Below, in pieces: positions 7,600 to 9,186 of a stretch of DNA of 55,778 nucleotides. A program made the translations under genes and the position numbers. Numbering within the stretch: the stretch's first letter is position 1; every line of letters begins with the position of its first letter. The notes beneath the pieces were generated by a model. The model made no database searches. It had not been told where the DNA came from and saw only the letters and a program-made list of their open reading frames with translations. The stretch covers positions 1-55,778 of IMG/VR virus record IMGVR_UViG_3300032215_000092; one strand, given 5' to 3'. This stretch comes from a virus. Taxonomy: Duplodnaviria > Caudoviricetes.

Positions 7600-8511
7600 A
7601 TGGCAATTTCACGTGCCCAACTACTGAAGGAACTCCTTCCCGGGTTGAACGCTCTGTTTGGTCTTGAGTACGCTCGCTACGGCGAAGAGCACAAAGAGAT
7701 CTACGAGACCGAAACCTCTGAGCGTTCCTTCGAAGAAGAGACCAAGCTCTCTGGCTTCAGCGCAGCCCCCGTCAAAAACGAGGGTCAGGCAATTGCGTAC
7801 GACAATGCGCAAGAAGCATGGACGGCTCGCTACAACCACGAGACCATTGCGATGGGCTTCGCGGTGACGGAAGAGGCAATGGAGGACAACCTCTATGACT
7901 CCCTGTCTTCGCGTTATACCAAAGGTCTGGCCCGTGGTATGGCTTACACCAAACAGGTGAAAGGTGCGGCGATTCTGAACAACGGATTCTCGTCTAGCGT
8001 TACATACGGTGACGGTGTTTCCCTGTTTAGCACTGCACACCCACTGGTTTCGGGTGGTACTAACAGCAACCGTCCTTCGACGGGTGTTGACCTGAACGAG
8101 ACCTCGTTGGAAAGCGCTGTGATTCAGATCGCTGCGTGGACTGATGAACGTAGCCTGTTGATCGCCGCTAAGCCGCGCAAGCTGATCATTCCGCCTGCTC
8201 TGATGTTCGTTGCTACCCGTCTGTTGGAAACCAGCCTCCGTGTTGGTACTACTGACAACGATATCAACGCGCTGAAGAACAACGGTTCGATCCCTGAGGG
8301 TTACACCGTTAACCACTTCTTGACCGACACGAACGCATGGTTCCTGACCACGGATGTTCCAAACGGTCTGAAGCACTTCGTGCGTGTTCCATTGTCTACC
8401 TCGATGGACGGTGACTTCGACACGGGTAACGTGCGCTACAAAGCGCGTGAGCGTTATTCGTTCGGTGTGTCCGATCCGCTGGGTATCTTTGGATCGCCCG
8501 GTTCGACCTAA
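7600..8511 (+). CDS. Major capsid protein (HK97 fold, Mu gpT-like family)
   Basis: 303 aa, strong TAAGGAG RBS, 'DGVSLFSTAHP', 'PRKLIIPPAL', 'RYKARERYSFG'; followed by a terminator. Confidence 0.9.
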   Translation: MAISRAQLLKELLPGLNALFGLEYARYGEEHKEIYETETSERSFEEETKLSGFSAAPVKNEGQAIAYDNAQEAWTARYNHETIAMGFAVTEEAMEDNLYDSLSSRYTKGLARGMAYTKQVKGAAILNNGFSSSVTYGDGVSLFSTAHPLVSGGTNSNRPSTGVDLNETSLESAVIQIAAWTDERSLLIAAKPRKLIIPPALMFVATRLLETSLRVGTTDNDINALKNNGSIPEGYTVNHFLTDTNAWFLTTDVPNGLKHFVRVPLSTSMDGDFDTGNVRYKARERYSFGVSDPLGIFGSPGST

Positions 8512-8535
8512 TCAATCTGGCCTCTGGCCGATTGG

Positions 8536-8558
8536 GGGCCCCTTCGGGGGCCCTTTTT
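8536..8558 (+). terminator. Rho-independent terminator after the capsid gene
   Basis: GGGCCCC-TTCG-GGGGCCC-TTTTT. Confidence 0.9.
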
Positions 8559-8559
8559 A

Positions 8560-8588
8560 TTGCGCGTCTACAAAAACAGTGATATAAA
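8560..8588 (+). promoter_or_regulatory. Sigma70 promoter with extended -10
   Basis: TTGCGC (8560-8565), 17 bp, TATAAA (8583-8588) preceded by TGn. Confidence 0.6.
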
Positions 8589-8596
8589 GGTTCATA

Positions 8597-8666
8597 CCTA
8601 GACCACCCGACTTGCTGACTGACTAGGCAGACTTCCCTCAAGAGACAGCAAGTTTTGATTTGAGGA
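8597..8666 (+). ncRNA. Candidate structured 5' leader RNA (pseudoknotted, RBS-sequestering)
   Basis: Three complementary pairs: 8597-8601/8623-8627, 8610-8617/8646-8653, 8636-8641/8660-8665 (the last covers the GAGG RBS). Confidence 0.55.
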
Positions 8667-8673
8667 CTTTATT

Positions 8674-9186
8674 ATGGGTTTCGCTACTCACCTAGGCCCA
8701 TGGCTGCTTGGAACGGTCAAAGAGACCACCGGCACCACGGCAGGTACAATTCGCAATCTTGGCGCAACGATTGTTGCCCAGACTGTTACCGTCGCAATGT
8801 CTGGTAATGCGCTGACTTCTTCTCCAGTTGCTCAGTCGTTGTTTACCCTCCCGGCTGGCGCTAAAATTCTTAGCTTTCAGATTGAGAAGCTGGCAACGAT
8901 TTCCGGTAACTCGGTATCGGCTGTCAACACCACTATTGGTAATTCTGGCACTGCAAATGCGTACATGACCACAATTGACATTGGTCTAACGACGGCGCAG
9001 ACGGCCCCAACGACGATTGCCGCTGCTCTGGTTTCGTCAGCTACCAATAACATTGGTACGGTTGATATTCCGGTGTTTGCCACTTTCACAGCGGCTACGG
9101 GTAACCCAACGGCTGGCTCTGTGGTTATTACTTGTCAGTACCTTGTTCGTGGTACAGACGGCGTAATGTTCCCAGCATCTGTGTAA
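8674..9186 (+). CDS. Virion structural protein (capsid-associated, putative)
   Basis: T/A/G-rich beta protein after the capsid gene; 'LPAGAKI' motif; GAGGA RBS. Confidence 0.6.
   Translation: MGFATHLGPWLLGTVKETTGTTAGTIRNLGATIVAQTVTVAMSGNALTSSPVAQSLFTLPAGAKILSFQIEKLATISGNSVSAVNTTIGNSGTANAYMTTIDIGLTTAQTAPTTIAAALVSSATNNIGTVDIPVFATFTAATGNPTAGSVVITCQYLVRGTDGVMFPASV

Follow-up and report, generated by a model that had tools for sequence, protein, structure and literature searches.

How is the gene behind a phage major capsid protein gene controlled when a terminator separates the two and the second gene has a promoter-like sequence and a potentially structured leader of its own? The question is raised by IMG/VR virus record IMGVR_UViG_3300032215_000092 (55,778 bases; estimated completeness, 88%), a stretch of caudoviricete DNA analyzed here at its full length and termed the window, in which a leader of about 80 nucleotides (nt) precedes the gene that starts at 8674 (the post-capsid gene). 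An original prediction, made from the letters of the window, had proposed that this leader is a promoter-driven RNA of three interlocked helices that masks the ribosome-binding site (RBS). Comparison of homologous leaders strongly supports a compact, evolutionarily maintained leader RNA with crossing helices. As judged from these sequences, the leader probably sets the amount of cement protein made from the gene behind it.

All three predicted pairings, together with their crossings, are present in the window. The 5' end of the leader forms helix H1 with a segment further downstream. Helix H2 has the core ACTTGCTG (8610-8617) and CAGCAAGT (8646-8653), which a G8609.U8654 pair lengthens to 9 base pairs (bp). 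Helix H3, lengthened to 7 bp by G8642.U8659, carries in its 3' arm the GAGG that the original prediction had placed there, upstream of the open reading frame (ORF) at 8674. H1 crosses H2, and H2 crosses H3. The description as a three-helix RNA held for these three but was incomplete in its count, as a fourth helix, H4, of 3 bp (C8619-G8630, U8620-A8629 and G8621-C8628) encloses the 3' arm of H1 in its loop. The established order of helices is H1-H2-H4(H1')-H3-H2'-H3', where primes mark 3' arms. Folding of the window sequence by itself was no better than chance: the minimum free energy had a z-score of -1.37, with 19 of 200 shuffled sequences folding as well, and a second test gave a z-score of -0.90. 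Single-sequence energies being uninformative, the case for the fold therefore rests on comparison.

A first alignment (A1) comprised 81 distinct homologous leaders of 106 nt that were aligned by MAFFT and fitted to no structure. Standard pairs filled 91.9% of its pair cells versus 26.6-39.0% when the 3' partners were slid, and 20 of 23 pairs showed changes on both sides. In 500 column shuffles, the observed values of pairing, covariation score and doubly changed cells were never reached, and the number of further pair types was reached twice. The covariance model R1 was built from A1 and encodes only the nested helices H2 and H4. It was used to align 93 leaders, obtained from 176 distinct ones by k-mer dereplication, in a second alignment (A3) in which H2 and H4 are fitted and H1 and H3 are not. 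Here, 93.6% of pair cells were standard versus 21.4-38.7% for slid partners, compensatory changes were found in 22 of 23 pairs, and none of 500 shuffles reached the observed value on any measure. In columns not fitted to it, H1 was paired in 93.1% of cells with compensatory changes in four of its five pairs; H3, likewise unfitted, was paired in 84.8% of cells, a figure that is lower because of indel misalignment, with compensatory changes in all six pairs. All nine pairs of H2 showed compensatory changes. H4 was paired in 99.6% of cells, its outer C-G and G-C pairs being fixed and its middle pair covarying (AU 40, UA 35, CG 11, GC 7). RNAalifold independently predicted H2 and H4 from A3. Thus, homologous capsid-downstream leaders keep the predicted pairings, with compensatory changes in 20-22 of 23 pairs depending on the alignment.

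The geometry of the fold was also conserved. When each of the 93 leaders was parsed separately for its longest helices, a procedure that left a few automatic H3 choices in doubtful register, H1 of at least 5 bp was found in all 93 leaders (22 arm types) and H3 of at least 5 bp in 92 (35 arm types). H2 and H4 arms came in 79 and 9 sequence types, respectively, and H2 was almost always 9 bp long. The H1 arm in the H4 loop is preceded by 0-1 nt and followed by 0 nt in 88 of 93 leaders, the spacer before the H2 3' arm is 3 nt long and ends in GA, and 5-7 nt separate H2 from the H3 3' arm in most leaders. Because H4 presents its loop to the RNA 5' end, and the linkers are just long enough to span a 9-bp stem, all four helices would be expected to form together. 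G.U or U.G pairs occur in all long helices and would be C.A mismatches on the opposite strand; the RNA is therefore that of the + strand. The GAC and AGAC linker repeats of the original prediction survived in part, as G-A-C after H4 (87-91 of 93 leaders), GA before the H2 3' arm (87-93) and A before H4 (90). By eye, AUGs lie inside H3 in some clades only, with no upstream ORF start conserved, and the H1-H2 linker showed no consistent complementarity to the Shine-Dalgarno (SD) sequence across clades. Positions are collected in Table 1.

Table 1. Features of the leader and its surroundings in the window, and loci with the shorter type II leader in their own coordinates
Feature	Positions	Strand	Remarks
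H1 5' arm, CCUAG	8597-8601	+	Pairs with CUAGG 8623-8627
H1-H2 linker, 7 nt	8602-8608	+	5-10 nt in 93/93 leaders, mode 7
H2 5' arm, 9 nt	8609-8617	+	Pairs with 8646-8654
Unpaired A between H2 and H4	8618	+	A in 90/93
H4 mini-hairpin	8619-8630	+	CUG 8619-8621 / CAG 8628-8630; loop, A8622 and CUAGG 8623-8627
Unpaired AC after H4	8631-8632	+	A in 89/93, C in 87/93
H3 5' arm, CCUCAAG	8636-8642	+	Pairs with 8659-8665; core CCTCAA 8636-8641 / TTGAGG 8660-8665
AGA junction before H2 3' arm	8643-8645	+	G in 87/93, A in 93/93
H2 3' arm	8646-8654	+	Pairs with 8609-8617
H3 3' arm, UUUGAGG	8659-8665	+	Contains GAGG of the SD
SD, GAGGA	8662-8666	+	7 nt before AUG at 8674
Post-capsid gene	8674-9186	+	170 amino acids; probable jelly-roll capsid cement/decoration protein (AlphaFold2 and Foldseek)
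Predicted transcription start	8594-8596	+	6-8 nt past the -10 element; from -10 spacing
Promoter-like region	8560-8588	+	TTGCGC 8560-8565 (-35-like), 17-nt spacer, TG 8580-8581 (-15/-14), TATAAA 8583-8588
Intrinsic terminator of capsid gene	8534-8559	+	9-bp GC-rich stem (hairpin 8534-8555) and T tract
Major capsid protein gene	7600-8511	+	phrog_371 major head protein, E 1.5e-18
Type II leaders	L241:2469-2530, L243:2473-2534, L266:3491-3549, L275:3487-3547		
Type II leaders	L276:3461-3526, L280:3439-3505, L427:2996-3060		L427, Roseobacter phage CRP-902

The position of H3 relative to the SD bears directly on whether the leader masks the RBS. In all 93 leaders of A3, H3 ends within -5 to +6 nt of the SD start. 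Its 3' arm shares at least 3 nt with the SD in 13 leaders and 1-2 nt in another 12; in 59 it stops 0-2 nt short of the SD, and in the remaining 9 it is 3-6 nt upstream. Masking as originally proposed fits the window, where GAGG lies in H3, and 12 other leaders, and it failed as a general property (13 of 93). By this comparison, predicted SD masking is a feature of the window's clade and not of the whole family, and the constant feature is a predicted fold that ends at the SD.

Six capsid-selected loci without an R1 match carry a shorter leader before the same kind of gene. We refer to this form as type II and to the leaders described above as type I. The type II order starts with CCUG and A, continues with a hairpin that has C-N-G at its opening and at its close, then AC, a strand of 6 nt and (A/C)GA, and ends in CAGG and a following AG, the SD. 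A scan with this pattern found at least 120 stretches in viral contigs, of which 80 loci were taken, and 71 distinct type II leaders with a start codon at the right distance formed a further alignment (A6). The hairpin covaries in A6. Pairing between the 6-nt strand and UGG(C/G)UA at the start codon fills 86% of cells, and this pseudoknot covaries with the second codon, GCU versus GGU (G-C 44, C-G 11). The closing stem CCUG/CAGG covers AGG of the SD, and the pseudoknot covers UG of the AUG and codon 2. In our reading, the junction order and letters (A, AC, GA) would be the same as in type I, with H4 extended to an ordinary hairpin, H1 absent and H2 shortened onto the SD. Some type II leaders follow the T tract of a terminator without a -10 element. 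A role that needs the RNA 5' end therefore cannot be the common denominator of the two types, which favors control of translation initiation.

To which gene the leader belongs was evident from loci in which the capsid and post-capsid genes have been separated. Viral-contig searches guided by the capsid protein and by the post-capsid protein each yielded at least about 600 stretches. Of the 160 loci retained, 80 per search, 100 hold both genes on one strand, and the window was counted as the 101st. The spacer between the two genes is shorter than 300 nt in 78 of the 101 loci (62 distinct sequences). The remaining 23 have at least one gene inserted behind the capsid terminator, among them a free-standing GIY-YIG/NUMOD3 homing endonuclease (L041:3523-4230); another inserted ORF (L095:1803-2402) matched no Pfam family. 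By eye, a -10 box and the leader stand directly upstream of the post-capsid gene in all 23 insertion loci. The unit is therefore promoter, leader and gene, and not a 3' appendage of the capsid gene. The placement given in the original prediction, behind a -10 element and directly ahead of a virion gene, was thus borne out in homologues.

With filters off, R1 found a single copy in the window (8577-8679; 62.8 bits, E 5e-10), the next best match having an E above 8. At E up to 0.01, it matched 66 of 81 sources of the first capsid set, and 39 of these 66 loci have no tblastn match to the post-capsid protein of the window. With the limit relaxed to an E of 1, R1 also matched 69 of 82 sources drawn around DSL-LC04-type capsids and 31 of 61 capsid-bearing contigs from bins of prokaryote genomes; 67 and 22 of these matches, respectively, had an E of no more than 0.01. 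Loci missed by R1 end within about 550 nt after the capsid gene or have long insertions, with the leader possibly beyond the flank; the rest are the six loci with a type II leader and some that are unexplained. A divergent type I leader missed by R1 (L267:3470-3575) has all four helices on inspection by eye, its H4 being 4 bp long with a loop of 7 nt. Another (L257:3425-3527; E 0.85), close behind a terminator, seems to be without the H1 5' arm. Genome bins were rejected as a guide to the host, as capsid relatives occur in metagenome-assembled genomes (MAGs) of many unrelated phyla and are most likely mis-binned phage contigs. Two capsid relatives lie in long bacterial contigs, namely L277 (Pseudomonas sp. 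MAG; 465,754 bases) and L278 (Dehalococcoidia MAG chromosome; 1.12 Mb), and may be prophages or assembly chimeras. The leader match was weak in L278 (E 0.031), and L277 had none.

Cultured phages carry the leader as well. The capsid protein of Pelagibacter phage HTVC023P is 64.5% identical in amino acid sequence to that of the window, and a type I leader whose H1 arms are the same as those of the window precedes its gp41 (R1 45 bits, E 3.3e-7). Phage DSL-LC04 has a type I leader before its 'cement protein', HTVC027P has a divergent version before gp62 (E 0.43; by eye), and Roseobacter phage CRP-902 has a type II leader before gp56. In Planktothrix phage Pag-Yong1, the gene that follows the capsid gene is unrelated and has no leader. 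Among sequencing runs, none held more than one fifth of the sampled words, and all were available as contigs. Four RNA libraries were compared with 8300-9000; none of them covers 8492-8587, a gap from which we draw no conclusion, and their depth cannot serve to rank expression. One 171-nt contig starts at 8595 and matches 8595-8666 without a difference, and a second contig covers 8593-8677 from its 8th letter. Because contigs cannot prove a transcription start or transcription, the contig beginning at 8595 is a weak hint of a start there.

The elements at 8560-8588 may function as a promoter. They were missed by a strict consensus scan because the -35 element matches at only 3 of 6 positions, and the pattern TGNTATAWW is not enriched in the window (3 found versus 4.9 expected). 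The other two occurrences (23881, minus strand; 29731, plus strand) were dismissed as chance matches, as both lie inside long ORFs. Across the aligned homologues, the -10 box is kept (its first T in 92 leaders and its A in all 93), and its end lies 8-9 nt before H1 in 78 of 93. TTGACA-like -35 boxes are seen in loci with inserted genes. Upstream, the capsid terminator hairpin (8534-8555) outranks every other terminator-like site in the first 20 kb of the window, and, by eye, related loci have terminator hairpins and T tracts upstream of the leader or of the inserted genes. In the shortest spacers (e.g., L089:2371-2420), terminator and promoter overlap, with a TTGTGC -35-like hexamer in the loop of the terminator hairpin and the -10 element right after the T tract. 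The capsid protein itself matches the Pfam families Phage_capsid_4 and Mu-like_gpT.

What the leader precedes is, in the window, probably a jelly-roll capsid cement protein, judging from a predicted structure. An AlphaFold2 model based on 48 relatives (predicted local distance difference test score 82; predicted template modeling score 0.76) had its best Foldseek match in the capsid asymmetric unit of cyanophage Pam1 (chain 7eel_H; E 6.8e-5, template modeling (TM) scores 0.58/0.69). The cement proteins of Helicobacter phages KHP30/KHP40 came next (7dn2_1 and 7dou_4; E 2.5e-4 and 1.2e-3), followed by jelly-roll capsid proteins; TM scores were moderate throughout (0.41-0.69). The product is also 34% identical (E 8e-12) to the DSL-LC04 protein that its depositors named 'cement protein'. 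PHROGs and Pfam gave no informative family for the product of the window or for most variant cassettes, the exception being a 236-amino acid type with an SO2946-like_C/ConA-like domain. An RNA-binding autorepressor resembling the MS2 coat protein was considered and rejected: phmmer gave E 0.02-0.07 with single chains and 6.7e-6 with a tandem dimer construct, and no MS2-type coat protein was among the Foldseek matches listed. The similarity falls on residues 78-141, a stretch rich in T, S, A and N, and is probably compositional.

At other loci, the leader precedes proteins of 73-240 amino acids that share an N-terminal peptide of the type M-A-x-T-T-F-x-G-P (M-G-F-A-T-H-L-G-P-W in the window) and little else. 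Profile comparison of the window's family with two other families, one of which bears an SO2946-like_C/ConA-like domain, aligned the first 20 residues or nothing. The post-capsid slot is thus a hypervariable cassette, with at least three families lacking detectable homology beyond an N-terminal peptide of about 10-20 residues (window, L001-L304). Some cassettes carry G-N/D-V-T-G repeats.

The leader matched no known RNA family. The original prediction had assigned it to no named Rfam family, and covariance searches of the window and 10 homologous loci agreed. Rfam 15 gave no match anywhere in the window at gathering thresholds. At E up to 10, region 8450-8750 had 11 weak matches, none covering the H1-H3 fold. 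These sit on the terminator (8450-8582), the furthest-running one (8535-8617) being a minus-strand match. With E up to 1, the leaders of the 10 loci gave nothing. The Mu-gpT-DE RNA motif of Rfam lies downstream of Mu-like gpT head genes. The present leader is similar in occupying the spacer after a head gene that matches Pfam Mu-like_gpT. Unlike that motif, it gave no Rfam match and moves with the downstream gene, apart from the capsid gene in 23 of 101 loci. A term search of the main text of a paper describing 224 motifs (PMC5737381) gave no mention of capsid, gpT or freshwater. An IMG/VR screen for covarying intergenic structures, including those up to 25 nt upstream of genes, yielded 8,495 candidates (Fremin et al. 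2023; PMC10690425); its main text mentions T4 gene 32 and names candidates that precede GP20, GP32, terminase and a major capsid protein domain, and none that precede cement or decoration genes. The accessible text of papers on HTVC023P-type phages and on the HTVC027P transcriptome (PMC12753301) makes no mention of a leader RNA; the HTVC023P-type group is put there at about 7.6% of marine viromic reads. The element appears to be an undescribed, or at most catalogued but unnamed, family of pseudoknotted leaders of very abundant aquatic phages.

Our preferred model is translational control through a fold coupled to the RBS and a putative, probably macromolecular effector, and we regard its chances of being correct as evenly balanced. 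According to this model, the RNA of about 80 nt would span the whole 5' untranslated region of the mRNA for the capsid cement protein, with transcription driven by a host-type promoter of its own immediately after the capsid terminator. The fold would be built around the constant 9-bp H2, whose apical junction carries the 3-bp H4; the RNA 5' end would pair with the H4 loop (H1) and the 3' tail with the junction strand (H3), resulting in a doubly pseudoknotted three-way junction with near-invariant unpaired A, AC and GA. This RNA would act in cis on translation initiation, as the 3' pseudoknot arm ends at or inside the SD. In the window, where H3 pairs with GAGG, the folded state would limit access of the 30S subunit. 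The invariant junction would serve as the docking site of a trans-acting effector that tunes cement-protein output relative to capsid protein. A phage or host protein, or the ribosome, would be a likelier effector than a small ligand. The data establish the helices with their covariation, the constant placement from the -10 element to the SD and the tie to the gene; the joint formation of all four helices, the transcription start, the effect on translation and the existence of an effector are what we infer from these features.

There are precedents for such an arrangement. The leaders of T4 gene 32, Escherichia coli rpsO (S15) and the alpha operon (S4) are pseudoknot translational operators bound by proteins. 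The leader described here resembles them as a pseudoknotted 5' leader at or overlapping the RBS of a single downstream gene: H3 reaches to or into the SD, and the type II pseudoknot covers the AUG. In the S4 leader, two interlocked pseudoknots reach the initiation region, as they do in type II. Unlike these operators, the leader has no match by sequence or covariance model, and its downstream products are non-homologous past the N-terminal peptide.

Several observations weigh against our preferred model. The SD is left unpaired by H3 in 68 of 93 leaders (adjacent in 59, apart in 9), and simple masking therefore cannot be the shared mechanism of the family. A high-copy structural protein with a strong SD fits a boosting leader as well as a repressing one. 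Because the downstream proteins are homologous over no more than about 20 N-terminal residues, the product is a doubtful candidate for a classical autoregulator. Nearest-neighbor energies of the nested alternatives in the window are similar (H2 with H4, -10.4 kcal/mol; H1 with H3, -9.4 kcal/mol) and leave room for a two-state switch. Finally, the homology of the type I and type II junctions is our reading of the sequences, and the CCUG/CAGG stem and junction letters of A6, being fixed by the search pattern, carry no weight.

Of the other explanations, an effector-free module for 5' protection and insulation fares best, and we consider it possible but doubtful. Here the knot would tie up the transcript's 5' end and block 5'-end-dependent decay by RppH/RNase E or by RNase J or another 5'-to-3' exonuclease, much as viral exoribonuclease-resistant RNAs (xrRNAs) do, and would keep the SD free of downstream pairing, giving high, context-independent expression of a high-copy structural gene. 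The distance from the -10 end to H1 noted above would leave 1-3 nt unpaired at the RNA 5' end, and the unpaired SD of most leaders is as such a module would have it. Moreover, the gene stands behind a strong terminator and encodes a probable cement protein needed in capsid-like copy numbers, and the leader travels with very different downstream cassettes. The topology is also suggestive. In xrRNAs of flaviviruses and plant viruses, the 5' end and the 3' tail both fold back onto a junction borne by a closing stem, and the closing stem and junction of the leader would likewise take both ends. The resemblance has its limits, as the 5' end of the leader pairs with a hairpin loop and its 3' tail with a junction strand, the opposite of the xrRNA arrangement, and no xrRNA model matched. 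However, a plain 5' hairpin would suffice for protection, so that the invariant junction letters would make sense only if a mechanically resistant fold were required. Several type II leaders follow a terminator without a -10 element, which makes the element internal to an mRNA, and the RBS is paired in type II and in the window's clade.

The junction letters A, AC and GA could alternatively form an aptamer, either for a small molecule or for a conserved component of virion assembly, for example, free capsid protein or the N-terminal arm common to the decoration proteins. We rate this as unlikely; if true, the leader would represent a new class of sensor RNA that couples translation of capsid decoration to a cellular or assembly signal. 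A small-molecule riboswitch in the strict sense, with the three-way junction as aptamer and a ligand that stabilizes the pseudoknots and changes RBS access, is improbable. The leader is compact, about a dozen junction and closing-pair positions are near-invariant, its pseudoknots abut or include the SD, type II builds the SD and AUG into the fold, and no known family matches. It shares with the preQ1-II, SAM-II, SAM-V and guanidine-III riboswitches a size of 50-90 nt, a pseudoknot 3' arm that touches the SD and few invariant junction nucleotides, and differs from them in having four helices, two pseudoknots and a virion gene downstream, and no Rfam match. The SD lies in the pseudoknot 3' arm in the window and 12 other leaders and not in 68 of 93, where ligand-induced folding would leave it unpaired. 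Furthermore, a virion decoration gene offers no metabolic rationale, there is no expression platform such as a terminator, and no ligand can be proposed.

A two-state switch, in which H2 and H4 (state X) and H1 and H3 (state Y) interconvert kinetically during transcription or with temperature, is quite improbable. Besides the similar nested-state energies in the window, H1 with H3 is the more stable nested state in 65 of 93 leaders. By eye, the H1 5' arm of many CCGGG/CCGAG-type leaders (L089, L029 and others) can pair with the H1-H2 linker instead (CCGG/CCGG; CCGA/UCGG), adding a local 5' hairpin to state X. This hairpin, which might represent an intermediate of co-transcriptional folding or a switch, is lacking in the window and in the CUAGG, CCAAG and CUGGG clades, which counts against the two-state reading. 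Likewise, the conserved wrapping of the H1 3' arm by H4 with practically no spacer fits a loop presented to H1, and the constant H2 length and constrained linkers fit a single three-dimensional fold.

Processive antitermination similar to that of HK022 put, acting on RNA polymerase for read-through of a long virion operon, is most improbable. The leader does stand right after a promoter-like region at the head of a long + strand gene block, but its 3' end is locked to the SD and AUG, with type II pairing with the start codon, and there is no terminator-like site on the + strand from the leader into the next genes up to 9200. A self-cleaving ribozyme, suggested by crossing helices and conserved junction letters, is barely credible, as no Rfam ribozyme matched even at E up to 10 and a promoter directly ahead makes 5' processing needless.

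The element is a compact, strongly covarying, doubly pseudoknotted RNA with structural support of the grade that usually precedes discovery of a riboswitch, ribozyme or operator, and hundreds of very abundant phages of fresh and marine waters have kept it, the cultured SAR11 phage HTVC023P among them. Its function can be addressed directly, since phage-host pairs are in culture and an RNA-seq time course of infection is public. Behind the constant leader and N-terminal peptide, unrelated decoration-protein cassettes have been swapped, and the element therefore bears on how expression is kept constant during diversification of the capsid surface.

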